64,000 nt of DNA. Source: an uncultured Ignavibacteriaceae bacterium. GTDB taxonomy: Bacteria > Bacteroidota > Ignavibacteria > UBA10030. The position numbers were made by a program, and so were the translations under genes. The stretch is taken from positions 46,076 through 110,075 of the forward strand of contig CAYIHQ010000002.1 in NCBI GenBank assembly GCA_964362905.1, written 5' to 3'. Below, piece after piece: positions 11,395-64,000 of the stretch. Below the pieces are notes generated by a model that saw nothing but the letters and a program-made list of their open reading frames with translations, had not been told where the DNA came from and did not search any database. Numbering within the stretch: the stretch's first letter is position 1; the number at the start of each line of letters is the position of its first letter.

Positions 11395-11395
11395 C

Positions 11396-11647: not shown

Positions 11648-11659
11648 TAAGGAGTTACT

Positions 11660-12295: not shown

Positions 12296-12297
12296 TA

Positions 12298-48037: not shown

Positions 48038-48903
48038 TTAAACATACCTGGCACATTATAGATAATTTTTCCGCCTTGTTTTTTTACGAATATTGTCCAT
48101 TTGATATTATACCTTTTAATGACTCTTGTCAAGATTTGTTGTACAGCTTGCTTACTTATTTCTTCTATATTGGCTATATGCGCAAAATTAAAATTTGTTT
48201 GATATATCATAATTAGTATGCATCTTTGTTTATGAGTCAATTCGTCGCCGTGGTCTTTTATGAAGCTTCTCATTATAGCAAATTCACTTAATTTGGTTAA
48301 AGCTGAATAGAATTCATACTTTACTCTAGCTTGATTATTTAGGTCTAACTCTTTTGCTATGGTTAGAAAGTCTTTACTCTCATAAAGATATTTTTTAACT
48401 ACAGATTGCCTGATGTCTGATAGGCAGTCCCAAGGTACTTCTATATTATTTAAGGCAGTTGGTCTTACAGAATTATCAGTTACATATTGTTCAGCATGAT
48501 TTTCTAATGTATCTTGTAGAATCAAATCTGGTTCTTTATTTGACCCCCTATTCAAAAAATCATTGACTTGATAACAAGGGCTATTACAGATCTTAGCTAT
48601 GGAACATATATTGCAATTAGCTAGGAATAGCTCGTCATTTTGAATATTGTGTGTAATCTTGAGCTGTTCTAAATAGGGCTTTGCAGTTTTTGATAGCCAA
48701 GGTAATGGCCTACCAACACATGAGGTGGTTAAGCAAACTTTTCTTTTTGGGCACTCATCTATAGAATAACCATAAGCTTCTATAGTTTCTTGCCTAATTA
48801 TGCGCATAATATTATCTCTAATGTCTCTATGAATTAGATTATGCCATGGAGCCATAGTACAGGCAGGAAACTTATAAGTTCTTTTAAATGTCTTTTCGTC
48901 CAT
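48034..48903 (-). CDS. Cys-rich protein with C-terminal HTH-like segment (possible transcription regulator)
   Basis: Several Cys pairs in the N-terminal half. EISKQAVQQILTRVIKRY is helix-turn-helix-like. Confidence 0.3.
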   Translation of the reverse strand: MDEKTFKRTYKFPACTMAPWHNLIHRDIRDNIMRIIRQETIEAYGYSIDECPKRKVCLTTSCVGRPLPWLSKTAKPYLEQLKITHNIQNDELFLANCNICSIAKICNSPCYQVNDFLNRGSNKEPDLILQDTLENHAEQYVTDNSVRPTALNNIEVPWDCLSDIRQSVVKKYLYESKDFLTIAKELDLNNQARVKYEFYSALTKLSEFAIMRSFIKDHGDELTHKQRCILIMIYQTNFNFAHIANIEEISKQAVQQILTRVIKRYNIKWTIFVKKQGGKIIYNVPGMFK

Positions 48904-49330
48904 TTATCTCTTCCTGCAATTTCTTGGCAATTCCCATCCATTTTAAGGTGGATTGTCTTTCTTGAGTTAATTCTTCTCTTAGTCGATTGATGTCTAGTTT
49001 TGCGCAATATTCGAACCATTCAAGTGGGGGTTCTTGTGACTTTAGGTATCTATCAATCTCCTCATCAGTAGTACATCCCATCTCTTTGCTCTTGGCTACT
49101 CTAAAATATTTTTTAGCCATGGGATGATTGCTTCTATCTTTATTCAAACTCCAAGCTTCGATGATCCATTCATATTTACCGCCACGATTTTCATGTTCTT
49201 CTTCCGCTGATTTCTTAGCTTTATCCAAATTATCAAATACTCCTACGGTATAATGATGACCTTCTTCTGAACCCCATCTATTCATAACGACTACATATAC
49301 GAAGTTATAAAGTATTTTCTTAGCGTCCAT
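48884..49330 (-). CDS. hypothetical protein (148 aa)
   Basis: Operon ORF. Confidence 0.35.
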   Translation of the reverse strand: MDAKKILYNFVYVVVMNRWGSEEGHHYTVGVFDNLDKAKKSAEEEHENRGGKYEWIIEAWSLNKDRSNHPMAKKYFRVAKSKEMGCTTDEEIDRYLKSQEPPLEWFEYCAKLDINRLREELTQERQSTLKWMGIAKKLQEEINGRKDI

Positions 49331-49589
49331 ACAGAAGTTTTCCTATTTTAGTTTTTTTAATTAATCTATCTTTTTTGCGGCGTTCTAATTCTAAGTATAA
49401 AAATGGTAATATTCTTTTAGATGTTCTAGACTTAACATGTTCAATAATTTTTTTTATGTGTCTGGGTCTTAAGTTGCATATTGGTATAGTTTGTCCGTCT
49501 AAAGTAGTCCAAATTTCTCCATAGCTGTATTGTATCTCTGGATCAGCTAAAAGTCTTTTAGGATACTGTTTATACTTTTTCACAAACAT
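49320..49589 (-). CDS. small basic protein ending ...KIGKLLYGR (LYG-tail family)
   Basis: C-terminal motif. Confidence 0.35.
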   Translation of the reverse strand: MFVKKYKQYPKRLLADPEIQYSYGEIWTTLDGQTIPICNLRPRHIKKIIEHVKSRTSKRILPFLYLELERRKKDRLIKKTKIGKLLYGR

Positions 49590-50122
49590 CCCTTATACAA
49601 TATATCAAAAACTTCAGCTTTTATGTTATTTTCTTTTAAAATCAGCTTTATTAAATAGTTTTTATATTCTTGTTGTTTGGCTGCAATAGGAGCATTGGTG
49701 GCACGGGCGGAGGAGGAGTCACGGGCGGTGGAGATGGCGGCATAGTCAGTAGCATGGGCGGCAGACAAGGCGACGGTGGAGGTAGTGGTATTGACGACTG
49801 CATAGGCGGCATATGCTGTGGCATAGGCGACGGAGGAGTCACGGGCGGTTATGGAGGGGACACTGGCGGTGGCATGGGCTGCATTGGCGGCCGTCCTAAT
49901 ATCTTTTTTAGAAACTTCCTTACCCAAAAGTAAGTCTCCCAAAATTTTCAACACTTTATTTTGCTTAATATAAATTTCTTTATATTTTGCATGATCATAA
50001 TTGGCCCTAGTATCTTTTACTACAAATATAAGAAACTTATACAAAATATTTTTATTGTCGTATTCTGCCAAAATAGTTTTTATGTCAGAACTCATAAGAC
50101 TTCTAAGATTTAACTTTTTCAC
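49580..50122 (-). CDS. Ala/Tyr-repeat protein, paralog A
   Basis: Conserved N- and C-terminal modules flank a low-complexity A/Y/S/T/H core. Ends ...FDILYKGCL. Confidence 0.5.
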   Translation of the reverse strand: MKKLNLRSLMSSDIKTILAEYDNKNILYKFLIFVVKDTRANYDHAKYKEIYIKQNKVLKILGDLLLGKEVSKKDIRTAANAAHATASVPSITARDSSVAYATAYAAYAVVNTTTSTVALSAAHATDYAAISTARDSSSARATNAPIAAKQQEYKNYLIKLILKENNIKAEVFDILYKGCL

Positions 50123-50592
50123 ATATACCTCATAACTAACTGTTCATATTTTTTACGCTTAATTTTATGTGAAGTGTTATACCTACTCCAATAATTTGGC
50201 TCTTTATAGTTTTTCTTCAAATCTTTTAGAATTTGGGCAGTACAATTTATTGAATAATCAAGATCAATAAGTAATCTGTTCTTATCAAAATTATAATATT
50301 TAATAGTTTTGATATTTATTTGTCCTATAGAATAGTCATTGCTTTTGCTCAAAACATTCAATTTATATGACGATTCTTGCATTAACATAGCTGTCAGTAT
50401 TTTTGAATCAATCTTGTGAACTTTGTGTATTTTATCAATTAAACTAGATAGTTTCACGGCATAGTTTTTATCAATAGTGGGATTATTCTTAATAATTTGA
50501 TGAAAAATAGGACTTGCCTGGGGTGATGTTGTTTTAGCGAATACTTTAATGGATAGTATTAATAACATGCTGATTATTATATTTTTTTTCAT
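50119..50592 (-). CDS. lytic transglycosylase (SLT domain) with signal peptide
   Basis: Signal peptide MKKNIIISMLLILSIKVFA. LMQESSYKLN and YSIGQINIK are SLT catalytic-region motifs. Confidence 0.6.
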   Translation of the reverse strand: MKKNIIISMLLILSIKVFAKTTSPQASPIFHQIIKNNPTIDKNYAVKLSSLIDKIHKVHKIDSKILTAMLMQESSYKLNVLSKSNDYSIGQINIKTIKYYNFDKNRLLIDLDYSINCTAQILKDLKKNYKEPNYWSRYNTSHKIKRKKYEQLVMRYM

Positions 50593-51059
50593 ATGATCTT
50601 ATTTCCATATAGTATTGAGAATGCTTTGCAGTCAATTTTGTTATCCTCTAATACTAGCTTGATTAAATATTGTTTGTATTCTTGTTGTTTGGCGACATGG
50701 GCGGCAATGGTGGCGGCAATGGTGGCGGCATGGGAAGCGGAGTGGGCGGCATAGGCGGCGGAATTGGCGGCATGGGAAGCGGAGGTGGCATGGGCGGCGG
50801 CAAAGGCGGCGACAAAGGCGGCCTCAATATCTTTTTTGAGAACCACCTTACCCAAAAGCAAGTCTCCTAAGATTTCCAACACTTTATTTTGCTTAGCGTA
50901 AATTTTTTTATATTTACTGTGGGCATAATTGAGCATAGTATCTTTTACTACAAATATGAGAAATCTATATAAAATAGACTTTGAATAATATTTTTGTAAT
51001 ATACTTTTAATATCAGAATTAATTAAAGTTTTAATATTCAAAGTTTTCATTAATAACAA
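50589..51059 (-). CDS. Ala/Tyr-repeat protein, paralog B
   Basis: Same flanking modules as A. Core AAFVAAFAAAHATSASHAANSAAYAAHSASHAATIAATIAAHVA. Ends ...FSILYGNKII. Confidence 0.5.
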   Translation of the reverse strand: MLLMKTLNIKTLINSDIKSILQKYYSKSILYRFLIFVVKDTMLNYAHSKYKKIYAKQNKVLEILGDLLLGKVVLKKDIEAAFVAAFAAAHATSASHAANSAAYAAHSASHAATIAATIAAHVAKQQEYKQYLIKLVLEDNKIDCKAFSILYGNKII

Positions 51060-51649: not shown

Positions 51650-51806
51650 CTTGGATTACATAACCATTTTTGTTACAAAACCCGATGAAGCTTTCTATTA
51701 CTGCAATAACAATACCATTATCGTCTTTTCCATAATTCACCCAGTGGTTAATAGAATCAGATTTAATTTCAGAATATTGTTTATTACTAAGTTTAATTTC
51801 TTTCAT
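51597..51806 (-). CDS. small hypothetical protein (69 aa)
   Basis: ORF. Confidence 0.3.
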   Translation of the reverse strand: MKEIKLSNKQYSEIKSDSINHWVNYGKDDNGIVIAVIESFIGFCNKNGYVIQDGKVLQKDEEKEQRHNS

Positions 51807-52309
51807 ATATATAACATACCATAAGTTTTAGTATTAATTCCATTTTCTTCTAATACTAGCTTTATTAAATAGTTTTTATATTCTTGTTGTTTGGCTGCAT
51901 AGGCGGCATCGGCGGCATAGGCGGCGGCATAGACGGCATTGGCGGCATAGACGGCGGCATAGACGGCATCGGCGGCATAGACGGCGGCATAGACGGCATT
52001 GGCGGCATAGACGGCGGCATAGACGGCATTGGCGGCGGTGGTGGCGGCATAGGCGGCGGCATTGGGGGCATTGGCGGCTGTCCTAATATCTTTGCTAGAA
52101 ACTTCCTTACCCAAAAGTAAGTCTCCCAAAATTTTCAACACTTTATTTTGGGAATCATAAACTTCGCTATGGTTTTTACAGTCATAAGTGGCCCTAGTAT
52201 CTTTTACTACAAATATAAGAAATCTATACAAAATAGACTTTGAATAATGTTGCTCTAGAATATTTCCTATACCAGAATTTTGCATTTGTTTTAAATCTAT
52301 TTTTGACAT
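51803..52309 (-). CDS. Ala/Tyr-repeat protein, paralog C
   Basis: Core AVYAAVYAANAVYAAVYAADAVYAAVYAANAVYAAAYAADAAYAA. Flanks near-identical to A at the DNA level. Confidence 0.5.
   Translation of the reverse strand: MSKIDLKQMQNSGIGNILEQHYSKSILYRFLIFVVKDTRATYDCKNHSEVYDSQNKVLKILGDLLLGKEVSSKDIRTAANAPNAAAYAATTAANAVYAAVYAANAVYAAVYAADAVYAAVYAANAVYAAAYAADAAYAAKQQEYKNYLIKLVLEENGINTKTYGMLYI
51895..52075. repeat. 15/30-nt tandem repeat (ggcggcatagacggc / attggcggcatagac) coding for (AVYAAVYAA[N/D])n
   Basis: Read directly. Similar but degenerate tracts at about 49685..49900 and 50690..50830. Confidence 0.8.
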
Positions 52310-52323
52310 ATTATATTCTGGCC

Positions 52324-53787
52324 TTATCTTTTTACTCGTTTAGTAACAACAATTTTAGTTTTAGAACCGAAATTTATTGAAGAGTCTAGAGTGTGTGGCG
52401 GAGTTAAGCCCCATAAAACTTGATATTTAGGTTTTTTAATGTTTTCGTTCCAACATCCTCCATCAGTACAGTAAATTAAACCGTCAATTTCCAATTTTTC
52501 TTTTTCAATAAAATCAAACACTGGCTTAAATGCTGTTCCGCCTCGACCATGGACTTTAAATTCTTTGCGAGGGTCAAACTTATAAGGCTTATTATTAATT
52601 TGTGTATCACATTCAATTACAGTTAGATCAACTCCCATATTATGTAATCTGATCATTTCTGCATGAAATTGCCCTAATTCTTCATCCCCAACTGAGCCAG
52701 ATGTGTCAAGGGCTACAACTAATTGCAATTTAGGAAAAGTTTTATTTCCAGGGTATAAAATACCATATCGTCTATTTCTTTTCTTTCTTGTTGATTCTAT
52801 CAATATTTCAGAGCATCTAGCAGAGAATTTTTGTATATCTCCACGCCAGTCCTTTGGAACATAATTAAGTTTTTCGATAGCTGCAATAACATCACCTGGC
52901 AACTTACCCATATCTTTATCGGCTGTTTGTTCTGCTGCTTTATTGACAGCATCTTTTACCTTTTGAGTAATATCATCTTCAGTATTATCAGTTTCGTGCC
53001 AGATATTGTGGTCATCAAGAACTATATATTGTTCTGCGCCATTTTCTCCATTCTTTTCTTGTTGTTCTTTAAGAAATTCGTAGTAGTACTCCATTGTTTG
53101 TCTGTTTTCAATATTTGGGAATTTCTTTTTAAGAAGTTCGACGAATATCAAATCTGCCTCAACTGGCATACCAGCATCTTTATCGGGATTGGGGATATTG
53201 TTACCTTTTTCGTCCTTGATGTGAGTTGGTACATTAATAGTGTTACCATTATGGTCAAACATCTTGACCTTACGAGGAAGGTTGGGCAAATATTCATTTA
53301 TGGCAGCATCGGCAGCTTTATTAGTTGTACTGGCTTTTTGCATATCCATAATACGATCAAAAATTGATTTATCTACATTATCAAATACTTTAGGCTCAAT
53401 ATCTCTAAATCTAACAAAATGATTATTAATAACATGATGAGCCTCATGTTTCAAAACATCTACTCTCTGCGGCAAATTCATTGCACTAAAAAAATAAGGA
53501 TTAATATGAAGATTAACTTGATCCGTGACGCTAACTCCAAGCGTTGGCAATTTTACCGTGAATTCTCTGCGCATACCCATGATAAGATTAGCATAGAAAG
53601 GTTCAGCGAATATCAATTCCACAATAGTTTGTTCAAGCAGTTCTTCTGCCTTACCAGTAATTCTATTAAGTCTCTCTTGATCGAGAGGTTCTTGGTGTGG
53701 CTGTTTAGTAGCTTCTTTTTTAGTTTCTTTAGAGCGCATTTTAAACCTCTCATTAGTTAAAGGGTAACAGCAGCCTGTCAAACTCAC
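52324..53787 (-). CDS. vWA-domain protein with N-terminal HExxH putative metallopeptidase module (DUF2201-like partner of MoxR ATPases)
   Basis: LKHEAHHVINNH (HExxH). VVALDTSGSV fits the MIDAS DxSxS motif. Confidence 0.6.
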   Translation of the reverse strand: MSLTGCCYPLTNERFKMRSKETKKEATKQPHQEPLDQERLNRITGKAEELLEQTIVELIFAEPFYANLIMGMRREFTVKLPTLGVSVTDQVNLHINPYFFSAMNLPQRVDVLKHEAHHVINNHFVRFRDIEPKVFDNVDKSIFDRIMDMQKASTTNKAADAAINEYLPNLPRKVKMFDHNGNTINVPTHIKDEKGNNIPNPDKDAGMPVEADLIFVELLKKKFPNIENRQTMEYYYEFLKEQQEKNGENGAEQYIVLDDHNIWHETDNTEDDITQKVKDAVNKAAEQTADKDMGKLPGDVIAAIEKLNYVPKDWRGDIQKFSARCSEILIESTRKKRNRRYGILYPGNKTFPKLQLVVALDTSGSVGDEELGQFHAEMIRLHNMGVDLTVIECDTQINNKPYKFDPRKEFKVHGRGGTAFKPVFDFIEKEKLEIDGLIYCTDGGCWNENIKKPKYQVLWGLTPPHTLDSSINFGSKTKIVVTKRVKR

Positions 53788-53854: not shown

Positions 53855-54952
53855 TTACAGGTCTTCGAGTTTCATGTTACGAGCATTAGCAAGAATCTTT
53901 AGTAGATCTTCGCTATTATCAATGATTTCACGAGCATTATCTTCTAGATATAGATTACGACATAAGTCGAAAGCCAAATCTTTTGGTATAGTTTTCAAGA
54001 ACTCCACAATATTAGAACTCTGTTCTTTAGTGGGCTTCTTTTTAAGTTCTTGAATCGATTCAAAGAGGCTATCACAAGTATACTTAAGCATATCTTGACG
54101 CCCTCCAGTTTTAGCATCAGAATACTTCTTAATTCTAGACGCTACTTTATCGTAACTATCAAGAATATCTTTACCGTTAATTGGCTTATCAGTGTCACTA
54201 AGTGACTTTATAAATGCCGCACTAGCCGCAGTGCCGACCAATCCAGATGTTAGTTCACGCAATAAATTGACTGGAGTCTTAATAGACATTAATCTATTAA
54301 CTGCTTCCCAAGAGCGTCTTGATGGTTTTACATCAACATCAAAAGATTCTAATTCAGTTTGTAGCAGGGTTGGCTGATCTTGTAAAAATTGGATTAATTG
54401 CGGTTCAAACTTACGAAACTTAGCATAATCAAAAAACTCTTGTTTACTTGGTGCTAGTTTAATATGACAGAAACGGTCCATTAAAGCTTTATCTGAAATA
54501 TCAGTAACAATATAATCTTCGGTATTTGGGTTCATCGCACTAATTACATAGAAATTGGATGGAAATGTTGTGGCGTGGATGCGTTTTTCTGTCAACAAAG
54601 GAAATATAACTTGTAACACATCTCTACGAGCACGATTAATTTCATCAAGAAACAGAATAGCCTTTTTGTCTGGATTAGCTAAACAAAACTCATTGATCTC
54701 TTTAGCCCAATCTGGCATCATAAATTGAGTAGATACATTATTACCGTCTTTGTCTTTCTTAAAGTCTGCTAGACCGATAATATCCCCTACTTCTTGGGTA
54801 CCCAAATTCAGGATTTTTAGAAGTGCTTTTTCTACTTTAGCATATTGACTCACGCCTTGAGTTTTGCCTATTCCATGATGTCCTACTAATAATGCTGGAA
54901 TTTCAGCCTCTATTAGATATGGTAATGCTTCTTTTAAGGTTTTAATGTTCAT
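53855..54952 (-). CDS. MoxR-type AAA+ ATPase
   Basis: Walker A LLVGHHGIGKTQ. Walker B ILFLDEINRA. About 365 aa, single AAA module. Confidence 0.7.
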   Translation of the reverse strand: MNIKTLKEALPYLIEAEIPALLVGHHGIGKTQGVSQYAKVEKALLKILNLGTQEVGDIIGLADFKKDKDGNNVSTQFMMPDWAKEINEFCLANPDKKAILFLDEINRARRDVLQVIFPLLTEKRIHATTFPSNFYVISAMNPNTEDYIVTDISDKALMDRFCHIKLAPSKQEFFDYAKFRKFEPQLIQFLQDQPTLLQTELESFDVDVKPSRRSWEAVNRLMSIKTPVNLLRELTSGLVGTAASAAFIKSLSDTDKPINGKDILDSYDKVASRIKKYSDAKTGGRQDMLKYTCDSLFESIQELKKKPTKEQSSNIVEFLKTIPKDLAFDLCRNLYLEDNAREIIDNSEDLLKILANARNMKLEDL

Positions 54953-55736: not shown

Positions 55737-55976
55737 TTATTTTAAATCTTCATCTAATTGAGTTACCATTAATACTCTGGTTGTCTTAGTTTCATAAGTA
55801 TCCAGCAAAGTTTCATTAACAGTTTGCTTCACAATGTGAACAATGTTAATATCATCATTAATAACTAATGATTTAATATGTTGTCTAGCTTCTCGTAAGC
55901 TAGGGAATTTATCGATAATTTCATTGTTAACTCTTACGATATAGGTTGTTAGTATTGTTTTTACTTTTGGTGCCAT
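55737..55976 (-). CDS. small array protein (79 aa)
   Basis: First ORF of the tandem small-gene array. Confidence 0.35.
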   Translation of the reverse strand: MAPKVKTILTTYIVRVNNEIIDKFPSLREARQHIKSLVINDDINIVHIVKQTVNETLLDTYETKTTRVLMVTQLDEDLK

Positions 55977-56200
55977 AGTATCTCAAGTCCTTTACCGCAT
56001 TTACCCAAATTTACATAACTATGATCCATAAACAGCAAGAATTCGGTATGTAGTTTGCCAGTATTTACATTTTCTACTCTTATTGTAGAAAATGTTTTGT
56101 CTTCATATCCATGATGTATATATTTTATTTCATATAAAACGCAAGAATTTTTAGACTTTATTATATCTCCAATATTCCAATTATTTACTTTTTCTACCAT
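55961..56200 (-). CDS. small array protein, N-terminal IGDII, ends ...LEILWHQK
   Basis: Overlapping array ORF with a variant tail. Confidence 0.35.
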   Translation of the reverse strand: MVEKVNNWNIGDIIKSKNSCVLYEIKYIHHGYEDKTFSTIRVENVNTGKLHTEFLLFMDHSYVNLGKCGKGLEILWHQK

Positions 56201-56426
56201 ACAATACCTTGGTAGCTTTAGTATTTTTAACTTTGATACAATTATCTAATAACTTTTCTTCATAATATCTTTTATAAGATACTTCCTTGTTATTACTCAC
56301 TTCTTTTAAAGTATACAAATGCCCTTTAGGATAAGAACCTACATCATCCACAACAAAAGCTTTCTTTTCTTCTTTATGCATAAAAACATCGTTAATCTTA
56401 GCTTTAAATTTAGATTTCTTTGCCAT
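56181..56426 (-). CDS. small array protein ending ...ATKVLYGRKSK
   Basis: C-terminal motif. Confidence 0.45.
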   Translation of the reverse strand: MAKKSKFKAKINDVFMHKEEKKAFVVDDVGSYPKGHLYTLKEVSNNKEVSYKRYYEEKLLDNCIKVKNTKATKVLYGRKSK

Positions 56427-56578
56427 GTTTTTGCTCCAATTCTAGAATTAGTTCTTCGATCCATTCTAATTCTCTTTCTAATTCTTTTAATTGCCTATCG
56501 TCGGCTTCTATCATCATTGTACAAACATCGTAACGCTGCATTTCTAATTCTCGTAAAGTCACTTATTACTCCTATTAT

Positions 56579-57316
56579 TTAATAATTTTTTAATTCTCTC
56601 AATACTTTAGATGTTAGTAATGCTGCCGATTGAGAGGTGCCAGATAGAACTATCTCTGAGTCATTAATACCTAATCCTTTTACTTCTTTCCCGTCAAGTA
56701 TATAGGTATTTTTGCCGAAAGAATAATTACTAGTAGCATTAAGATCTTTATTATTTTTACCATTCATTACTACCATGATTCTTTTATCGCACATAGCAGG
56801 GTAACTTTTATATCTGTCTATGTTGAGGCTATTATTCCCTGCTGCGGCTATAACTTTTATTCCCTTGTCTAAAGCCCTAGTTAGTAGAGCGCATTCTAAC
56901 TTAGAATGATATAATCCCGAAATAGATAGATTAATTATTGCTACTTTTAAAGCGATTGCGTGAGAAATAGCCTTGATTACTGTCGATAAAGTATCAACTT
57001 TAGGGTTTTTATCAAAATATTTTAATTCAACTATACAATAGTTAATCTTATCATTACCAGAAGCTATTAAGCTACTTATATGAGTGCCGTGGGAGTGGTT
57101 GTCCATGACAGAAGTACCTGTAAAGTCTTTATGCCCACTTTTACATAGTTTGGGTTTACTTAGCTTAGAGTTGTGCCATTTGCTGGCAAAGTCAAATCCA
57201 GTATCAATGACTGCCACCTTAATTTGTTTAGCATGGGCATACGGCTGCACAACAAATACCGTCAAAATGCTAAGCACTATAATTGCCCATTTCTTATTTA
57301 TGTTTCCCATAAGCAC
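56579..57316 (-). CDS. subtilisin-like (S8) serine protease with signal peptide
   Basis: VAVIDTG (Asp), HGTHISS (His), GTSQSAA (Ser). N-terminal hydrophobic signal. Confidence 0.65.
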   Translation of the reverse strand: MLMGNINKKWAIIVLSILTVFVVQPYAHAKQIKVAVIDTGFDFASKWHNSKLSKPKLCKSGHKDFTGTSVMDNHSHGTHISSLIASGNDKINYCIVELKYFDKNPKVDTLSTVIKAISHAIALKVAIINLSISGLYHSKLECALLTRALDKGIKVIAAAGNNSLNIDRYKSYPAMCDKRIMVVMNGKNNKDLNATSNYSFGKNTYILDGKEVKGLGINDSEIVLSGTSQSAALLTSKVLRELKNY

Positions 57317-57341
57317 CTCATTATTATGCTATGCAATTAGC

Positions 57342-57590
57342 TTACCAGGCCCATTTACAGCTTATTTGCTTCTCTATAGCGGCTTTCTGTATAAGAAACA
57401 GCCAACTGCTGTATTCTTTGACGATCTTAGGGGTATATTGCTTATCTAAATGTTCAACTATCTTGTTTAAGCCCGATTGTATATATAAGGCTTCTCCAGC
57501 CTTTTTTATAGCCTCTTCCTCATTATTTGCCTTGGTTATCTGGCATGTCAGGAATAGCATCAGATTTAATAATACCATCTTTAGAACCAT
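57342..57590 (-). CDS. small secreted protein next to the subtilase (possible propeptide/inhibitor); overlaps the next ORF
   Basis: Signal peptide MVLKMVLLNLMLFLTC. A 68-nt overlap with 57523..57849 makes one of the two starts uncertain. Confidence 0.25.
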   Translation of the reverse strand: MVLKMVLLNLMLFLTCQITKANNEEEAIKKAGEALYIQSGLNKIVEHLDKQYTPKIVKEYSSWLFLIQKAAIEKQISCKWAW

Positions 57591-57849
57591 ATAACACCTT
57601 CATTACATCAGGATTAACTTTTACATAGGTTAAGTTAATAAGTTGTTTTGGCACCTTGAAACAATCGCAATCATCCCCTTTATCCTCATCTTCAAGCCTT
57701 AGCCACACATTAAGGGAGTCGATTTTGATAACAAAATATAATTTCTTATTGCCCTTATCCATAAGGAAATTATTTTTATGGATCTCTTCTTTTAGGGTAC
57801 TCATATTATACCTTCTTGTCAAATAAAATTTTGGTAGCTTTAGTATCAA
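57523..57849 (-). CDS. small array protein with internal ...VMKVLYGSKDG motif
   Basis: Motif about 20 aa from the C-terminus. Confidence 0.4.
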   Translation of the reverse strand: MILKLPKFYLTRRYNMSTLKEEIHKNNFLMDKGNKKLYFVIKIDSLNVWLRLEDEDKGDDCDCFKVPKQLINLTYVKVNPDVMKVLYGSKDGIIKSDAIPDMPDNQGK

Positions 57850-58063
57850 TTATTTCTAGATACTCATCATCACTGTCTCTAATATAAAATTCAGTACAAT
57901 ATACATCTTCTAGTTCCATAACGGAAAGTGTTTCTAAGGCTCTCCTATAATGCGCCAGCGCAAATCCTAAAAGAATATCAGCATCCCACGCATGTACCTT
58001 ATTACATAGGTCTTCGATAGCTTGTTCTTTGATTAGAGTAATCTTTCTTTTCTTCTTGCTCAT
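57806..58063 (-). CDS. small array protein ending ...ATKILFDKKV
   Basis: C-terminal motif. Confidence 0.4.
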   Translation of the reverse strand: MSKKKRKITLIKEQAIEDLCNKVHAWDADILLGFALAHYRRALETLSVMELEDVYCTEFYIRDSDDEYLEIIDTKATKILFDKKV

Positions 58064-58205
58064 CTTGAAGTTCCTTTTCTGCCTGTTTTAGCAATCGTTT
58101 AAATCTGTCGCCATCATATTGAGCCACATACTGTTGTCTAAACTTTAAGAAAGCTAGGCGATCTTGTGTCGAAATACAAACCATCAGTTCTTCTAATGCA
58201 TCCAT
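58002..58205 (-). CDS. small helical protein (67 aa)
   Basis: ORF. Confidence 0.3.
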   Translation of the reverse strand: MDALEELMVCISTQDRLAFLKFRQQYVAQYDGDRFKRLLKQAEKELQDEQEEKKDYSNQRTSYRRPM

Positions 58206-58804
58206 TACTTATTACTCCCATATAATACTTTTACCATTTTGTCGCCTTGAGTTTCATAGCCAGCAAGTAAGCTGTCTAAATCCAGACTGCTTAGTTCGGC
58301 TAGTTGAGTTTCCAATCCAGATCGTTCGTTATTATATTCTTGAATATAATTATCATGTTGCTCGGTGATAGATTTGATCTTCTCTGGTAATTCTTTTTGA
58401 ATCCTTTTTATGGACTCTGATTTGTTATAAATAGATTTTTCTATATTTAGCATAAGAGATTTTCTTACCTCATCTGGAGTTGAAATTTTAGTATTGGCAT
58501 TAACTTTTTTAATTGAAAGTGGTTTATTTAGTATATTCGCACCATTCCAATTTGAGCTAAACCAGTTATTAACAAAATATTTGCTAGCATTTTCATAGCT
58601 GTATTTGCACTTTTTACGGAGAGAATTTAATCTGGTAACTTCTGCTATCGCAGAAGCCTCATCGTAATAGATACAATCTTCATGAGGATAATTTTTTCGG
58701 CAAGTTATAAATCCTATGCGAACAAAAAATGTATTTCCATTATGTTTTTTAGTAATAACATAAGCGTTGTTAAGGTTTTTGAGTTTTAGATATTTATTTT
58801 CCAT
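58205..58804 (-). CDS. array protein (199 aa) ending ...MVKVLYGSNK
   Basis: C-terminal motif. Coiled-coil middle. Confidence 0.45.
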   Translation of the reverse strand: MENKYLKLKNLNNAYVITKKHNGNTFFVRIGFITCRKNYPHEDCIYYDEASAIAEVTRLNSLRKKCKYSYENASKYFVNNWFSSNWNGANILNKPLSIKKVNANTKISTPDEVRKSLMLNIEKSIYNKSESIKRIQKELPEKIKSITEQHDNYIQEYNNERSGLETQLAELSSLDLDSLLAGYETQGDKMVKVLYGSNK

Positions 58805-58806
58805 AA

Positions 58807-59037
58807 TTAACCTGCAATCTTTTTATTTTTGAAGTCAACATATACTATGTTTTTGTACTTAGGGTATTCTTCAAATAAGACAAACCTGTTATTCATAGTT
58901 TGAGCATTATACCTTCCATAAGTATTGTTTTCATACGCTACCGTAAAGAGCCCTGCTTTGAATTCTTCTAGTACTCCATTGAGATTTCTTTTTGTGCAAT
59001 AGACTTTGTCTCCCAATCTAAACTCTCGTGCTTTCAT
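58807..59037 (-). CDS. small array protein (76 aa), KOW/SH3-like start MKAREFRLGDKVY
   Basis: RBS GAGGAG. Lies downstream of a promoter-like element. Confidence 0.45.
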   Translation of the reverse strand: MKAREFRLGDKVYCTKRNLNGVLEEFKAGLFTVAYENNTYGRYNAQTMNNRFVLFEEYPKYKNIVYVDFKNKKIAG

Positions 59038-59056
59038 ATTTTACTCCTCATACAAT

Positions 59057-59116
59057 AATACTAATGCAGTATTGGTGCCAGTTCAGTCCTCATTATATTC
59101 GTTCTGAGTGTTTATG
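59057..59116 (-). promoter_or_regulatory. promoter-like element (minus strand CACTCAGAACGAATATAAT) plus downstream 6-bp hairpin aatact-aatgc-agtatt
   Basis: Perfect TATAAT about 45 nt upstream of the GAGGAG/ATG of 58807..59037. About 80% identical to the copy at 63822..63882. Confidence 0.4.
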
Positions 59117-59412
59117 TTGTTTACACTGTCCATATTTTGATTGACACTTTCGCTATAGAGTAGCTCAAAGGTCTTAGGTGGCGCTTTCACTTTTTTACCG
59201 AATTTTGTGTATAAAATAGCATCTCGATCTTCAAAAATACCCTTAGATATAAAAATTTTTTTATTTTCTGTAACATCCCACTCTTCAGTTACTACATAAT
59301 TAGGATTAAGTGGATCTATTTTAATAATTTTTACTAAAGTTCCTAGTATTCCCATATCAGTACTTTTGTATCCTACCACATCCATAAAATACCAGTCATT
59401 TACTTTTATCAT
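59083..59412 (-). CDS. small array protein with ...TFELLYSES motif
   Basis: Motif near the C-terminus. Its 3' end overlaps a promoter-like element. Confidence 0.4.
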   Translation of the reverse strand: MIKVNDWYFMDVVGYKSTDMGILGTLVKIIKIDPLNPNYVVTEEWDVTENKKIFISKGIFEDRDAILYTKFGKKVKAPPKTFELLYSESVNQNMDSVNNINTQNEYNED

Positions 59413-59561
59413 ATGCTGCCATTTCTTTGTAGTTGAAGGGATTATTTATGATGTCATTAGTATAATATTCCATACAATCTACTTGTTCCCCTTGAATTAT
59501 ATATTTAGGGTTTATAGCTTCAAGATTAGGACATAATTGTATAATTAAAGCAGTTATAATT

Positions 59562-59783
59562 TCAATTGTCATTTTCTAGTTCCCATACATTAAAGTCCAA
59601 ATATTCTCGTCCGTCAAAATCAGTTTCTCTACGACAACATTTACCTTTAGGAGGTAGCATTCCCCATTTTTCTAATTGAGCAAGTAATACTTTAGCCTGA
59701 CCGTAAGTCCCATCCATTCGCATAGTAGATTGATCTCTACCCAGCCATTTACCTATATTGGTTATCATTTCACTTCGTTTCAT
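59562..59783 (-). CDS. GMLPP-motif small protein, paralog 3
   Basis: MKRSEM...WGMLPP...WELENDN. Confidence 0.45.
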   Translation of the reverse strand: MKRSEMITNIGKWLGRDQSTMRMDGTYGQAKVLLAQLEKWGMLPPKGKCCRRETDFDGREYLDFNVWELENDN

Positions 59784-59994
59784 TATCAGTCTCCTGTTTC
59801 TTTACTTCATAAATGCTGTCGAACCACCAGAAAAATACAATCCAAAATGTGAATGCGGCGGCAATTGCAGAGAAACTATCTAGATGCTTTAAGGTATTAG
59901 AAATACCATTATACAATAGTATCATACAGATTAATGTGATTCTATTCATATTAATAACTCTTGAGTTGATAGCGATAATTACCTCTAGTATCAT
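59770..59994 (-). CDS. small membrane protein (74 aa)
   Basis: Two TM segments. Confidence 0.35.
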   Translation of the reverse strand: MILEVIIAINSRVINMNRITLICMILLYNGISNTLKHLDSFSAIAAAFTFWIVFFWWFDSIYEVKKQETDNETK

Positions 59995-60202
59995 AAACCT
60001 TAATTACGCTAGTATGCTCATCTTTTGTAATACCCCAACTTTCGGGGATCGGAACTTCAAGGCACTGCATCTCATTTCTTACAGCAGCATAAAAATCATC
60101 TATCTCGTAATTATTAATTTGAATTTCTCCAATATAGTTAGTATTATTGATACTTCCAAAGCGATCAGCATATATTTGTAGTACTTCAAAATTTTTATAC
60201 AT
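59951..60202 (-). CDS. small array protein (83 aa)
   Basis: ORF. Confidence 0.35.
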   Translation of the reverse strand: MYKNFEVLQIYADRFGSINNTNYIGEIQINNYEIDDFYAAVRNEMQCLEVPIPESWGITKDEHTSVIKVYDTRGNYRYQLKSY

Positions 60203-60387
60203 TAGTTCATCTCCTGTTTAGACATTTGTTTGAGTATCTTATCAATTCGATTGAATACATATTCAGATATATAACCTTCTTTATCTTTGCCCATAAGGGC
60301 GGCGATAACTAGGGCTAAAAACTCGCTATCGGCGTAGGTCTCTAATTCGCTGGAGGTTATTTTTTTAGTCGTTACCTTTTCTTGCAT
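60202..60387 (-). CDS. small hypothetical protein (61 aa)
   Basis: ORF. Confidence 0.3.
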   Translation of the reverse strand: MQEKVTTKKITSSELETYADSEFLALVIAALMGKDKEGYISEYVFNRIDKILKQMSKQEMN

Positions 60388-60616
60388 GATACTCCTCTCT
60401 TACTTCGTGCCAAGGCTTAATAGGCCATTTAGTAGTGGTGCGTTCTTTATACATTTTCATATATTCTGCAAGTATAATTAGCTGTTCGTCAAGCTTTTCT
60501 TTAGTTTGGTTGTCAATTTTTTTATCTTCGAGGGCCATCTCAAGAATGATCTTCATGTTAGCAATACCATTTAATTCCATATTAAGCCACCCAATTCCAG
60601 CCGTCGCATGGTGCAA
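60365..60616 (-). CDS. small hypothetical protein (83 aa)
   Basis: ORF. Confidence 0.35.
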   Translation of the reverse strand: MHHATAGIGWLNMELNGIANMKIILEMALEDKKIDNQTKEKLDEQLIILAEYMKMYKERTTTKWPIKPWHEVREEYHARKGND

Positions 60617-60827
60617 GATCTGTTAAGTCCCTTGTTCTAGACACGATATGACCCTTTAATTCAGACATATAGACATCGCCCATTTCAGTCTCAAAGCCCA
60701 TCACAACGCATTGAATCACATCATCCTTAAACTTATTATCAGTGACATAATATTCCCAGCCATTTCTCAAAATGATATGTTCTACAATATTAATTTGACT
60801 GCCATATTGATTCTGCATTTTTCTCAT
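60582..60827 (-). CDS. small hypothetical protein (81 aa)
   Basis: ORF. Confidence 0.35.
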   Translation of the reverse strand: MRKMQNQYGSQINIVEHIILRNGWEYYVTDNKFKDDVIQCVVMGFETEMGDVYMSELKGHIVSRTRDLTDLAPCDGWNWVA

Positions 60828-60837
60828 CTTGAACTCC

Positions 60838-61074
60838 TTAGTTAGTTGTTACATTATTACCATACAATACCTGTGCCATAGGACTATATTCATAATTCGT
60901 GAGTAATCTCGTGTAGCTGAGTGTATAATACAATTTATTAGGGCTGTTAATAGGTTGGACATCATACGCATGTATACCGTCCTCACTCTCAAAAACCTCA
61001 ACAATTCTAATTATGTATCCAATGTGCCGATTTCTAAAGCAATCGCCTATTTTATATACAGTCTTATTTTCCAT
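60838..61074 (-). CDS. small array protein: N-terminal YKIGDCF, C-terminal ...AQVLYGNN
   Basis: Motifs at both ends. Confidence 0.45.
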   Translation of the reverse strand: MENKTVYKIGDCFRNRHIGYIIRIVEVFESEDGIHAYDVQPINSPNKLYYTLSYTRLLTNYEYSPMAQVLYGNNVTTN

Positions 61075-61300
61075 ATAATAACCTTATAACCTCCGAATGT
61101 GTCCCTAATGGTCTATATAGCTCTATTAGCCTCTCCAATGGCATGTAACTAGTAACACCTTCGTTCTCAAACACCAAAGCCTTATATACCACATCGGCAG
61201 GTATTAACGGAGTATTAAGCATAATTACGGCTTTTACTACGGATATCTTATCTCTTACAGTATCGTATATAAATATGCCGTCATGATAAGGATTATTCAT
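61064..61300 (-). CDS. small array protein ending ...VIRLLYGK
   Basis: C-terminal motif. Confidence 0.45.
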   Translation of the reverse strand: MNNPYHDGIFIYDTVRDKISVVKAVIMLNTPLIPADVVYKALVFENEGVTSYMPLERLIELYRPLGTHSEVIRLLYGK

Positions 61301-61595
61301 ATAACACCTTCACACCTCTATCACCTTTAATCATAGCAGCTACAACCTTAAACTCTTCATCAACGGCCATTGCTACTAATCCACTAAACGTAGGAATCAT
61401 ATGCTTATGATAAAATAAATCAAGTCCTAGTTTATTGAATGTTTCACTTCGAATAGCTACAAAAGTCTGAACGGTGTCTTCAAAGCCCGCAGTATAATTT
61501 TTTTGTGGATATTCGTACACATTAACAATACATTCTAGTGGCATAAGAAACTTAGTCTTTCCAGTTGTTAGAGTTATACTATTACTAAAATTCAT
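61293..61595 (-). CDS. small array protein ending ...GVKVLYE
   Basis: RBS AGGGAG. Lies downstream of the AT-rich palindrome region. Confidence 0.45.
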   Translation of the reverse strand: MNFSNSITLTTGKTKFLMPLECIVNVYEYPQKNYTAGFEDTVQTFVAIRSETFNKLGLDLFYHKHMIPTFSGLVAMAVDEEFKVVAAMIKGDRGVKVLYE

Positions 61596-61618
61596 ATTTA
61601 TCTCCCTAGTATATTATA

Positions 61619-61657
61619 AGTAATACAATCTATTTTTAATAAATAGATTGTATTACT
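61619..61657. promoter_or_regulatory. perfect 17-bp inverted repeat (agtaatacaatctattt / aaatagattgtattact, 5-nt spacer) in a 195-bp AT-rich gap
   Basis: Read directly. On the minus strand it is immediately followed by TATAAT, then AGGGAG and the ATG of 61293..61595. Confidence 0.5.
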
Positions 61658-61789
61658 ATATTATATATATATATTATATAATACTTATTATATATATCCT
61701 ATAGTATATTATACATTGAATCACATATAAAACAATTAATATTTTACATTTATTATTACTTATTTGAATAATCTAATAATATTAAGTCC

Positions 61790-62044
61790 TTACTTTCCAT
61801 ATAATAGCTGTAGTGCTTTATAATTTATTTGACTTTCGTTATCTACTGATGCTATATAAATAGAGTCATCTGGTCTTGCTTTAGAATAAATTTTATCCTT
61901 TATACACCAACCAGTTTCTCCCTTATAATTAATGCATTTATGGTCAAGACTACAAAATATACGCCTTACCTTTATGGAATCTATCTCCTCATTTACATGA
62001 AAGCCAGTGCCATACTCCATTTTTTTTATAATATATCTAGCCAT
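61790..62044 (-). CDS. small array protein ending ...ALQLLYGK
   Basis: C-terminal motif. Confidence 0.45.
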   Translation of the reverse strand: MARYIIKKMEYGTGFHVNEEIDSIKVRRIFCSLDHKCINYKGETGWCIKDKIYSKARPDDSIYIASVDNESQINYKALQLLYGK

Positions 62045-62047
62045 ACA

Positions 62048-62329
62048 TTATTCCTTTTTTCCATATAGCAGTTTTAAACTATTTACATTACCTCTAAATA
62101 ACTGTGTTTGTCTATCAAAATCTGACACTTTATATTCATTAACCATATTTAAGTGCCTATGTGTAGGGGCTGTCATAAGACACCTAAGTTTATATTCAGA
62201 ATTTGTCTTTCTTGGAGAATTAAATATTTCGAATATTATAAATTTGGTTTTGTCTATAGGAAAGAATACAATAGCTAAATCTCCCTTTTTATATTTAGGT
62301 TTAATCTGCATATAAAACCTCAAAAGCAT
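62048..62329 (-). CDS. small array protein: N-terminal KKGDLAIV, C-terminal ...LKLLYGKKE
   Basis: Motifs. Confidence 0.45.
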   Translation of the reverse strand: MLLRFYMQIKPKYKKGDLAIVFFPIDKTKFIIFEIFNSPRKTNSEYKLRCLMTAPTHRHLNMVNEYKVSDFDRQTQLFRGNVNSLKLLYGKKE

Positions 62330-62654
62330 CTAATTTGTTACTAATATATTTCCACTTAACATCCTCAACCTTAAATGGTGGCAGGTCTCCAGTCATCTTC
62401 TTAGCCCACAGTACCTCCAACTTGAATAAGCCGTCATCACCCCATTGATAAAATGTACAGTCTTTTCTTCCCCAAGATAAACCCCATGTTAAATACTCTA
62501 ACACAGACTCTATGTTATTAGTTAAACTAAGTTGTTTTTTGTGGTCTATACTTTCATATTCTGATAATACAACAATATTACCGCAGCTTTTAGTAGTTCT
62601 ATAGTAATTAAAGGGGTATCCCTTTTGAGTTGTACTTTTAGTAAAATAAATCAT
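62301..62654 (-). CDS. small array protein ending ...AFEVLYAD
   Basis: C-terminal motif. Confidence 0.4.
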   Translation of the reverse strand: MIYFTKSTTQKGYPFNYYRTTKSCGNIVVLSEYESIDHKKQLSLTNNIESVLEYLTWGLSWGRKDCTFYQWGDDGLFKLEVLWAKKMTGDLPPFKVEDVKWKYISNKLDAFEVLYAD

Positions 62655-62655
62655 T

Positions 62656-62913
62656 TTATACCTTTCTGATTACCTTCTTACTATATAATAATTGTGCCGC
62701 TCTACTAACATATGTTAAAGTAGCAATTTCACTAGAAGTCCAAAGAAACGCCTTAGTACTGTAACTAGCATGAGGATATTGGAATAGATTGGTTACAAAA
62801 TATTTACAATAATCTTGGTCGCATAAATGCTTACCAACTATTTCAAGAATATCCCCAGTAAACTTATGCCTTAGAAACATGCCAACTTTATACTCACTCA
62901 CATCTGAATCCAT
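62656..62913 (-). CDS. small array protein: N-terminal YKVGMFL, C-terminal ...AAQLLYSKKVIRKV
   Basis: Motifs. Confidence 0.45.
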   Translation of the reverse strand: MDSDVSEYKVGMFLRHKFTGDILEIVGKHLCDQDYCKYFVTNLFQYPHASYSTKAFLWTSSEIATLTYVSRAAQLLYSKKVIRKV

Positions 62914-62921
62914 ATGAAATT

Positions 62922-63155
62922 TTATCCTTTTAAAGAATACAGTAAATTTAATATTTTATGCGGCTTGTAACATGTCAAAAATCCTTTTATACTTAACCTC
63001 CTAGAAATAAAACTACGGTAATTATCATGTCTATAGTAGCTATATAGTAGAGTGTTTGGCCATACTTCGTTAATAACTACTACATCATATATGTCTTCAG
63101 ACTGTTTAAGTATCCAATAAGTATTAGGTTTTATGTCTATTGCATTAATTTTCAT
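62922..63155 (-). CDS. small array protein ending ...ILNLLYSLKG
   Basis: C-terminal motif. Confidence 0.45.
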   Translation of the reverse strand: MKINAIDIKPNTYWILKQSEDIYDVVVINEVWPNTLLYSYYRHDNYRSFISRRLSIKGFLTCYKPHKILNLLYSLKG

Positions 63156-63157
63156 TT

Positions 63158-63436
63158 TTAGCTCCCATACAATAGTCTATAAGCTATAGGAATAGCCTTG
63201 TCATATTTATGAATCAATATAAACTCAGTACCTATTATATTATAAAAATCCCAACCATTATGTTTAGCACTACCTTTGGTAAAGAAGTTATATTTATTAT
63301 TTTCTTTTTGTGTTACAAGCACTTCATATTCGAACCAAGGGAATACATAGAAGGGACTTGATTTTTCAATTATTTTAGTAATTTTAATGACAACATCAAG
63401 CTTAGGATGCCATAAAATATTACCTACTTTAATCAT
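63158..63436 (-). CDS. small array protein: N-terminal MIKVGNIL, C-terminal ...YRLLYGS
   Basis: Motifs. Confidence 0.45.
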   Translation of the reverse strand: MIKVGNILWHPKLDVVIKITKIIEKSSPFYVFPWFEYEVLVTQKENNKYNFFTKGSAKHNGWDFYNIIGTEFILIHKYDKAIPIAYRLLYGS

Positions 63437-63438
63437 AA

Positions 63439-63666
63439 TTAGCCCTTTTGTAAAAATAAGATTTTAGCGGCTTCACTAAAAGGAACACAATGCTTTTTAT
63501 CGACTTCCCAGAACCCATTTAGATGTATAGATCTTACAAAGTTACTAATTATATACAAATTTGTGACTAGTATTTTACTGCTATGGTCTGCGTCAGAGTC
63601 GCATATACCAGAATAACCTTTTAAATAACCAGCAACAATTAATACTCTATCCCCTATTTTAAACAC
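63439..63666 (-). CDS. small array protein: N-terminal MFKIGDRVLIV (KOW-like), C-terminal ...AAKILFLQKG
   Basis: Motifs. Confidence 0.45.
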   Translation of the reverse strand: MFKIGDRVLIVAGYLKGYSGICDSDADHSSKILVTNLYIISNFVRSIHLNGFWEVDKKHCVPFSEAAKILFLQKG

Positions 63667-63882: not shown

Positions 63883-64000
63883 CTTTTACATTGTATAATT
63901 TTTGGTTGACACCACAAATCCCAATGCGTAGCACACTTGCCTACCTTTTAAACAATTGTCTATTCTGTAGGCAGTTTATCTAAGTACAGTACTTTAGCTA

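Follow-up and report, generated by a model that had tools for sequence, protein, structure and literature searches.

The stretch of DNA analysed here (the window) comprises 64,000 nucleotides of contig CAYIHQ010000002.1. It is part of a novel phage genome of about 32% GC, and the phage sequence is from Hainich groundwater metagenomes. Between positions 55737 and 63666, the window carries a tandem array of small open reading frames (ORFs), many of which end in a common C-terminal tail built around a V/I/L-L-Y/F triplet. This tail recurs elsewhere in the window and in related phages, it is conserved at the protein level, and it probably acts as a docking motif for small early proteins.

The large proteins encoded on the plus strand, in the first 14 kb or so, have no Pfam matches except a carbohydrate-esterase-like domain and are most likely phage tail or fibre proteins. 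From 14.3 kb to the window end, every gene lies on the minus strand. This minus-strand block encodes replication and nucleotide functions (a family A DNA polymerase, a DnaB-like helicase, an ATP-dependent ligase, an Erf-like annealing protein, a RecA-like protein, a RuvC-like resolvase, a deoxynucleoside monophosphate kinase and a guanosine monophosphate (GMP) reductase), together with a ClpP homologue, a sigma-like protein, a MoxR AAA+ ATPase and a VWA/DUF2201 protein. The small-ORF array sits upstream of MoxR. A second locus, L005, is identical to the window across 10.5 kb and extends 10 kb past its end. The array ends there at a divergent intergenic region, so it is promoter-proximal, and presumably early, in a long operon. 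By tblastn, the nearest cultured phages are remote, with 33% identity for PolA (Flavobacterium phage immuto) and 32% for MoxR (Vibrio phages). A megablast of the array against phage genomes gave no match, no relative of the MoxR protein was found in IMG/VR, a transfer RNA scan of the window was negative, and no capsid gene lies in the window.

The gene caller gives 29 genes in 55737-63666, including a 243-residue S8 peptidase and a 199-residue protein, where about 25 small ORFs had originally been counted. The 15 ORFs listed at that time as sharing the motif on one strand all carry it, and all are on the minus strand, as are the further tail bearers of the window described below. The motif stands 1–8 residues before the stop in 13 of them, and 21–23 residues before the end in the other two (57523-57849 and 59083-59412).

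Taken in the order of transcription, the members in the array are a 75-residue ORF (63439-63666) with a KOW/SH3-like N-terminus (MFKIGDRVLIV) and the tail SEAAKILFLQKG, a 92-residue ORF (63158-63436) with the tail IAYRLLYGS, in which GGGAG after the Tyr constitutes a Shine-Dalgarno-like site of the next gene, and a 77-residue ORF (62922-63155) with the tail HKILNLLYSLKG. The 85-residue ORF at 62656-62913 again has an SH3-like N-terminus and ends in SRAAQLLYSKKVIRKV. In the 117-residue ORF that follows (62301-62654; tail LDAFEVLYAD), the ATG in TAT-GCA (62311) is the start of the next gene, an 87-residue ORF (62048-62311) whose start is corrected to 62311 (MQIKPKYKKGD...) and whose tail reads NSLKLLYGKKE. 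An 84-residue ORF (61790-62044; tail YKALQLLYGK) is followed by a gap of 195 nucleotides, so the tail is present there without translational coupling. This gap, the only long intergenic one of the array (61596-61789), contains a perfect palindromic hairpin with a 17-bp stem (61619-61657; AGTAATACAATCTATTT-TTAAT-AAATAGATTGTATTACT), with a possible role as terminator, operator or processing site.

Beyond the gap, the tails of a 100-residue ORF (61293-61595; RGVKVLYE) and a 78-residue ORF (61064-61300; EVIRLLYGK) each embed the ATG of the next start, at 61300 and 61074, respectively. The latter opens another 78-residue ORF (60838-61074), with an SH3-like N-terminus (YKIGDC) and the tail PMAQVLYGNNVTTN, for which orthologues and one paralogue are found in L005 and in two of the related loci introduced below, L010 and L011. 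A variant tail, KTFELLYSE, located 23 residues before the stop, belongs to a 109-residue ORF (59083-59412). The 199-residue protein (58205-58804) has a long helical, coiled-coil-like C-terminal half and the tail KMVKVLYGSNK, which orthologues keep in all five loci first compared (L010-L014). The last three members are an 85-residue ORF (57806-58063; tail TKATKILFDKKV), whose body is mainly helical in a low-confidence model, a 93-residue ORF (57523-57804, start MSTLKEE) with an internal tail, DVMKVLYGSK, followed by 20 residues ending in the acidic tip DAIPDMP, and an 81-residue ORF (56181-56426) that was modelled, with a barrel at residues 14–65, a flexible tail, NTKATKVLYGRKSK, and an embedded ATG (56200) that is the next start.

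Acidic tips similar to the C-terminal tip of SSB (DDDIPF) also stand after the LY tail, namely DAIPDMPDNQGK and DEGVPF (window 57523-57849; L011 5402-5962), and a KDEIPF tip ends a tail-less family member (L010 13303-13701). These tips may be a second, SSB-mimicking docking motif.

The motif reaches beyond the array, to at least 12 further genes between 14.3 and 52.3 kb and to 13 more in the 10 kb past the window end, the latter in three transcription units on both strands. Three are paralogues with about 50% identity and a central Ala/Tyr-rich low-complexity region: a 168-residue protein (51803-52309; weak tail KTYGMLYI), a 156-residue protein (50589-51059; KAFSILYGNKII) and a 180-residue protein (49580-50122; EVFDILYKGCL). 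The Ala/Tyr repeat of this trio also gives rise, in a different frame of the strand that encodes it, to Pro-rich ORFs (e.g., 49651-49842) as by-products. An 89-residue ORF (49320-49589) ends in KTKIGKLLYGR, again a tail that is kept by orthologues in 5/5 loci first compared, and its embedded ATG (49330) is the next start. The sigma-like protein (48034-48903, minus strand) and its orthologues end in K-[VI]-[ILV]-Y-N-[VI]-P, a partial likeness to the tail core that may be a coincidence. Next come a 174-residue ORF (47513-48037) with the tail NQALEVLFL, the L010 orthologue of which ends in ENQAFKVLFV, a 96-residue ORF (47262-47552) with the tail TKQAEILYGEKHENIT and an embedded ATG (47290) that is the next start, and a 116-residue ORF (31399-31749) ending in SKGAKILYEKSKKKY.

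Four bearers lie at the far end of the minus-strand block. These are a 106-residue ORF (15541-15861) with an SH3-like segment (LKIGDVLLF), the tail PHGTLLYGKE and an embedded ATG (15554) as the next start; a 127-residue ORF (14954-15337; TEAAKVLYVKK) from an eight-member family; a 103-residue ORF (14616-14927; KDAAKVLFNK); and the last gene of the block, a 101-residue ORF (14314-14619) with a weaker tail, TKAEKLLFTAKKNSLPES. Past the window end, at about 0.3–1.2 kb beyond position 64000, L005 encodes four tandem paralogues of 72–80 residues (8766-9707; MSKLLLRCIKK...TAAKLLYG), which make up the most evident recent duplication of the array.

Consensus and distribution of the tail

The consensus from 134 tails spans 11 residues, [ST]-K-A-[AG]-K-[VIL]-L-[YF]-G-K-K. 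Positions are numbered from the V/I/L residue (0), giving S/T at -5, Lys at -4, Ala at -3, K at -1 and Leu at +1. Between one and five residues follow the Y/F in 106 of the tails, and the distance to the free carboxylate ranges overall from 1 to 25 residues. Phe takes the place of Tyr in 27 tails.

Chance or composition can be ruled out as the origin of the motif. Within the last 10 residues, [VLIM]L[YF] is found in 22 of the 107 minus-strand genes between 13.1 and 63.8 kb, versus a mean of 1.65 genes (standard deviation 1.3, maximum 7) in 1000 within-protein shuffles. In the first 50 kb of Flavobacterium phage immuto, the nearest cultured relative, used as a control, only 1 of 105 ORFs has such a tail. 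The motif therefore stands up to both kinds of control, shuffled sequences and another phage, that had been proposed with the original prediction.

Relatives were found by using the MoxR ATPase as an anchor, which leads to a large clade of metagenomic phages of 100–117 kb; 438 relatives are listed by this search. From seven of them, 21 kb around MoxR were taken and scored for tails within the last 12 residues. The search in related genomes, also proposed at the outset, finds tails to be abundant in six of the seven, at MoxR identities down to 49%: 16/56 genes in L010 (79% identity), 10/50 in L011 (67%), 30/55 in L012 (58%), 17/43 in L038 (53%), 12/51 in L013 (52%) and 26/54 in L014 (49%). Shuffled proteins of the first five loci (L010-L014) yield about one tail. 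The seventh locus, L039 (MoxR identity 52%, 28% GC), has 2/46 and shows a degenerate ..LY tail only. Of all 70–100-residue proteins of the compared loci, 47% carry the tail, and about a third to a half (35–55%) of the small early genes in this phage clade share it.

Searches outside this clade gave little. Ten members scanned against Pfam-A and PHROGs v4 had no match above threshold, with a sub-threshold KOW5_SPT5 match for 63439-63666 only, and a profile search against the PDB gave no match. The GTDB genomes contain 22 single, scattered matches to the tail pattern, close to the chance expectation, which consequently give no clue to a host or a prophage. The single IMG/VR match to a degenerate tail pattern is also a chance one. 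Full-text literature searches with the motif strings and on C-terminal motifs of small phage proteins returned nothing relevant. To our knowledge, no phage has been described with one C-terminal tag on a third to a half of its accessory proteome, with concerted variation from genome to genome and double use as a start region.

Protein-level selection and the embedded start region

Conservation had been placed at the protein level because the codons under the motif differ. Codon comparison confirms this difference, and no multi-copy DNA repeat is present. Of the NTNYTNTAYGG matches on coding strands, 70 share the frame of the gene around them, 12 are in another frame and 3 fall between genes. 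The invariant Leu(+1) uses its six codons at background frequencies, and the first base of the V/I/L codon can be G, A, C or T, all four of which are used. In the family of 56181-56426 (82 orthologues), the tail residues A71, K73, V74, L75, Y76 and G77 are conserved like the core segments KRYY and LYTL. A DNA repeat, or a cassette boundary like the promoter early stem-loop (PeSL) of phage T4, was rejected as the basis of the pattern, since only families of two or three copies with 65–94% identity are found, the pattern is frame-locked, and synonymous sites vary.

The protein-level reading thus stands, although it missed a nucleotide layer laid over the peptide, which consists of the start codon and Shine-Dalgarno-like site of the next gene. 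In 77 of 120 tails, an ATG arises from the TAT-G of Tyr-Gly (or of Tyr followed by Glu, Asp, Ala or Val), and in 53 of the 120 it is the start of an ORF of 45 codons or more, the next gene. It is therefore conceivable, though quite unlikely, that the sequence is primarily the initiation region of the downstream gene, with K-V-L-Y-G as the peptide by-product of a gene-junction element. Codon choice in the tails is in line with such a demand: the Tyr codon is TAT in 94% (77% in the background), the Gly codon is GGA in 51% (30%), about 50% of the Lys codons after Gly are AAG (28%), and the V/I codons favour A or G as the third base. Junctions in which the ATG is used also differ from unused ones, with AAG at K(-1) in 45% versus 24% and Shine-Dalgarno-like 4-mers in 24 of 53 versus 16 of 67. 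Used junctions are richer in AAG-GTN, which places a Shine-Dalgarno-like AAGGT about 6 nucleotides upstream. In the family of 57523-57849, moreover, the upstream ORF runs 15–22 codons past the motif, giving overlaps of 50–68 nucleotides, and the downstream start (57590 in the window) still falls on the Tyr codon in all four genomes that have both genes (window, L011, L012, L014).

Nevertheless, an initiation region would not account for the frame lock to the upstream ORF, for the background codon use at Leu(+1) or for the four first bases at the V/I/L position, and the Ala(-3), Lys(-4) and S/T(-5) preferences go beyond any requirement of a Shine-Dalgarno site or an ATG. Between -7 and -1, the 53 tails with a used ATG and the 67 with an unused one share the same amino-acid logo, the 27 Phe tails (TTY) cannot form the ATG, and tails precede not only the 195-nucleotide gap but also gaps of 27–35 nucleotides, or close the strand block. 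The unchanged logo, the Phe tails and the tails before gaps together indicate that the peptide is primary and that its codons have been co-opted as the next start region.

Overlaps of 8–68 nucleotides between genes are common in the minus-strand block (e.g., 57523/57590, 62301/62311 and L012 820-863), versus the 1 or 4 nucleotides usual in phages, because the downstream start lies within the tail codons. At one junction inspected by hand (62048/61790), -1 frameshifting at A-AAA-AAG would not join the downstream gene in the shifted frame.

Protein bodies that carry the tail

Two alternatives had been put forward for the array, namely one small barrel fold that was massively duplicated and diversified, or unrelated proteins with a common C-terminal linear motif. 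The second is better supported, and the first holds for a subset only. The 137 short tail bearers of all loci fall into 104 BLAST families, and all-versus-all BLASTP within the window reveals no significant similarity among tail bearers other than that of the paralogue trio. Bearers range up to proteins of 150–290 residues. The tail is also found on non-barrel proteins, such as the 199-residue protein with its long helical half, a DUF6011 protein of about 200 residues, the 174-residue protein and a family of 120–150 residues; the orthologues of each of these, and of the 85-residue bearer, keep the tail.

Most of the structural information comes from 56181-56426. A single-sequence homology search with this protein gives only 4 matches, whereas a profile made from the orthologues in the related loci gives 87, none with a precomputed Pfam domain. 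With an alignment of 82 sequences, AlphaFold2 predicts an SH3-like barrel with a predicted local distance difference test score (pLDDT) of about 80 (73 overall), made of strands 14–17, 22–32, 35–42 and 51–55, a helix at 56–62 and a strand at 63–65. Residues 66–81 are modelled as coil (pLDDT about 50) that is not packed on the barrel. Foldseek matches the model to generic small barrels only (HspQ, CAP-Gly, Tudor, chromo, DUF1653 and many uncharacterised phage proteins), with template-modelling scores of 0.5–0.67 and E-values of 0.0017 or higher, no match being significant, and the best PDB fold match of the body, a weak one, is HspQ (E = 0.065).

The reading in which one hugely duplicated and diverged SH3-like barrel family carries the tail as a structural helix or strand, or as an oligomerisation arm, draws on this barrel and on the N-termini. 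A KOW/SH3-like start had been reported for several members, and K-phi-G-D-x-phi is indeed enriched in tail bearers (14/116 versus 5/157, p = 0.007). When tails are trimmed, the profiles of four or five families match one another at 65–81% hhalign probability, and tandem paralogues such as the L005 quartet attest to duplication. From the K-x-G-D enrichment and the hhalign links, some of the bearers probably form a single diverged barrel family. As an account of all bearers, however, this explanation is unlikely, given the tail on 150–290-residue, DUF6011, coiled-coil and helical proteins, the lack of profile similarity in most families, and a tail that stays unpacked in the model despite 82 aligned sequences. 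The profile–profile comparisons and structure prediction suggested earlier have produced an SH3-like barrel model of one member and a few links between families. Concerted change of the tail across independent genes, described next, would not be expected of an intramolecular contact either.

Concerted variation and candidate partners

Tail positions change together within a genome. Position -3 is M or L in 10 of the 12 L013 tails versus 4 of 122 elsewhere (p = 2e-10), and position -4 is acidic in 8 of the 12 versus 20 of 122. At position 0, Leu is found in 32 of the 66 tails that come from the window, L010 and L011, versus 1 of 56 from L012 and L014 (p = 1e-9). The switch takes place within orthologous families, with TEAAKVLY, TKAAKVLY and SSATKVLY as opposed to NQMAEVLY and DSMSRVLY in L013; both L013 members of the eight-member family of 14954-15337 have M at -3. 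Independent genes that shift the same tail position together are what is expected if all tails fit one receptor.

The preferred explanation, with a probability of roughly 0.55, is that the tail is a portable C-terminal short linear motif, maintained by selection on the protein, that docks unrelated early proteins onto one putative partner. Its bearers would be a large, mostly unrelated set of small soluble proteins encoded in the early operons and those of the replication region, with presumed roles in host takeover or anti-defence. In the isolated protein, the tail would be free and flexible, with an S/T N-cap, two small residues, the V/I/L-L-Y/F triplet, a Gly cap and a Lys-rich end, and it could fit, as a short helix or strand, a hydrophobic groove rimmed by acidic residues on the common partner. 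Dozens of different proteins might in this way be handled by a single machine. The most likely guess for this machine is a protease or unfoldase, which would provide timed turnover of early proteins or adaptor-style delivery, with the phage ClpP plus a host Clp ATPase or the MoxR/VWA-metallopeptidase pair as candidates. A host hub is another candidate partner. As a secondary layer, translation of the next gene would have come to start within the tail DNA, with TAT-G(G) supplying the downstream ATG in about 40% of cases and AAG-GTN and GGA-AAG the Shine-Dalgarno-like purines.

Several points weigh against the docking explanation. We infer docking onto one partner, and the identity of the partner is a guess. 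None of the known Clp, Lon or HbYX signals fits the tail, and the spacing to the C-terminus varies. Gene conversion between tails, or a translational constraint that they share, could also produce the concerted change, and the strong link to the start of the next gene means that selection at the RNA level is not negligible. There is one confident-enough model only (pLDDT 73), as the single-sequence model of 57806-58063 (pLDDT 47) informs on secondary structure only. A low pLDDT of the tail is, besides, no proof of disorder, since in a homo-oligomer the tail could form an intermolecular strand or helix. Finally, L039 keeps MoxR, VWA and S8 with a degenerate tail only, which weakens these proteins as obligate partners.

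Among the candidates, the ClpP homologue already mentioned in the original prediction is indeed present (35784-36386, minus strand). Aligned with Escherichia coli ClpP, it keeps the catalytic Ser/His/Asp, and its gene lies in the replication module, between an RNase T-like exonuclease and PolA, and not in a head-assembly module. This position in the later, replication part of the operon would make a timed removal of early proteins possible. The MoxR-type AAA+ ATPase (53855-54952, minus strand) is encoded directly downstream of the array and is paired in all relatives with the VWA-like protein (52324-53787, minus strand), which has a putative metallopeptidase domain (DUF2201); the pair flanks tail-rich regions in 8/8 genomes. 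MoxR is the only unfoldase found in the window. An S8 subtilase (56579-57316, minus strand) lies within the array and has no tail. It is found upstream of MoxR in 7/8 genomes and was not seen in L013. Its Sec-type signal peptide (..FVVQPYAHA|KQ) suggests that it is probably exported, rather than acting on cytoplasmic tails.

Known C-terminal signals were compared with the tail and rejected. The ssrA-like degrons and ClpX C-motifs 1 and 2 do not fit, as no tail ends in LAA and the ends vary (K, KK, KKE, S, NNVTTN), while the conserved core is internal to the last 4–9 residues. HbYX, known from the tails of activators of the proteasome or Cdc48 type, requires a penultimate Tyr and a free carboxylate, but a single residue follows Y/F in only 12 of 134 tails, with 2–5 in most and 15–25 in some. 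The SspB XB peptide (...ALRVVK) tethers this adaptor to the ClpX N-domain, and HspQ is a small barrel with a C-terminal Lon degron; the resemblance to the XB tail, in which L-R-V-V-K stands at the extreme C-terminus behind a long flexible linker, is a loose one, and the phage tail follows directly after the folded body. Binding to the clamp, previously named as a possible partner, was rejected on pattern, since the residue before V/I/L is K in 65 of 134 tails and Q in 11, the hydrophobic residues are contiguous, unlike in the beta-clamp-binding motif (QL[SD]LF or QLxLxL), and no clamp gene is among the proteins scanned.

Membrane targeting by an amphipathic helix was likewise considered. The C-terminal tail of MinD, KKGFLKRLFGG, has a superficial likeness to the motif in its basic residues, hydrophobic pair, aromatic residue, Gly and terminal position. 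Anchoring of this MinD- or FtsA-like kind is, however, highly improbable here, because the hydrophobic moment of the tails (0.29 ± 0.13) is no higher than that of other C-termini in these genomes (0.31), the consensus reaches 0.17 versus 0.27–0.56 for known membrane-targeting sequences, and it has only three large hydrophobic residues. Transmembrane-like segments occur in 4 of 119 tail bearers versus 21 of 178 other small proteins, which points to cytoplasmic bearers, and the ordinary hydrophobic moment of the tails makes a membrane anchor unlikely.

Sorting into the virion, followed by ejection with the DNA, would by analogy explain why one short terminal peptide is common to many unrelated small proteins, and HK97-fold shells do bind C-terminal cargo peptides. 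It is nonetheless very unlikely that the tail is an encapsulin-cargo-like or T4-capsid-targeting-like signal, as the bearer genes belong to early and replication operons that run opposite to the structural genes, the consensus is unlike that of known cargo peptides, and no structural gene in the window has the tail.

Shared terminal tags are a known principle, and several systems can be set beside the docking motif proposed here. The SspB tail and the ssrA, MuA and HspQ-Lon degrons are also short, flexible, basic-aliphatic C-terminal peptides on a folded body, and are read by AAA+ proteases. The tail nevertheless lacks the LAA-COOH, RRKKAI-COOH or LRVVK-COOH ends of ssrA, MuA and SspB, and it is found on dozens of proteins per genome. 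T4 capsid-targeting signals, encapsulin cargo peptides and type IV effector signals similarly put one terminal motif on many unrelated proteins, but their consensus differs, and the tail genes are early rather than late, with bearers that have no signal peptides and are depleted in transmembrane segments. Poxvirus ankyrin/PRANC proteins offer a conceptual parallel (many binding bodies, one C-terminal element that links to a host machine, and a large copy number), although PRANC is a folded domain of about 50 residues from eukaryotic ubiquitin biology and not an 11-residue linear motif. Phage stop/start coupling (ATGA, TAATG) and the T4 PeSL elements resemble the tail as recurrent junction elements among small genes, with the downstream start inside the upstream ORF. 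Here, in contrast, the peptide rather than the DNA is conserved, the overlaps are of 8–68 nucleotides, and neither a promoter nor a stem-loop repeat takes part. Small SH3/Tudor/DUF1653-like barrels, frequent in uncharacterised phage proteins, have the fold of the modelled body, yet there is no significant Pfam, PHROGs or PDB match, the tail is not known in those families, and the likeness concerns a subset only.

A further-reaching idea, possible but tentative, is that of proteome-wide addressing, in which one tag would direct a third to a half of the accessory proteins to a single receptor and co-evolve with it in each genome. The receptor may be a protease or remodelling machine under phage control, such as ClpP or MoxR-VWA, for the scheduled destruction or the delivery of bound host targets, and the junction of tail, Shine-Dalgarno site and start would act as a plug-in cassette. 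If so, new genes could enter the array already tagged and translationally coupled. In virology, no pool of genes of unknown function is larger than the small early genes of phages, which are usually studied singly, whereas one interaction could explain the regulation, localisation or removal of dozens of ORFans. A tail peptide could serve as bait for the hub, and the genome-specific flavours of the tail constitute a natural covariation experiment for its receptor. That Tyr-Gly codons also serve as the next start makes the tail a clear example of protein and translation signals overlapping, and the tail-start junction suggests how accessory-gene cassettes swap while still being expressed. Should the hub be a protease, the tag would be a ready-made portable degron or adaptor tail.

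Some other features of these genomes touch the tail less directly. The replication module of the window contains two paralogous HNH endonucleases with 38% identity (24897-25550 and 32836-33453, both on the minus strand), and genes for the GMP reductase and a peptide deformylase (17108-18596, minus strand) are auxiliary metabolic genes. L013 encodes ribosomal protein L12-like and NifU-like proteins (3294-3683; 15288-15515), and in L039 an intein that contains a LAGLIDADG endonuclease splits the VWA/DUF2201 gene (11099-13495).

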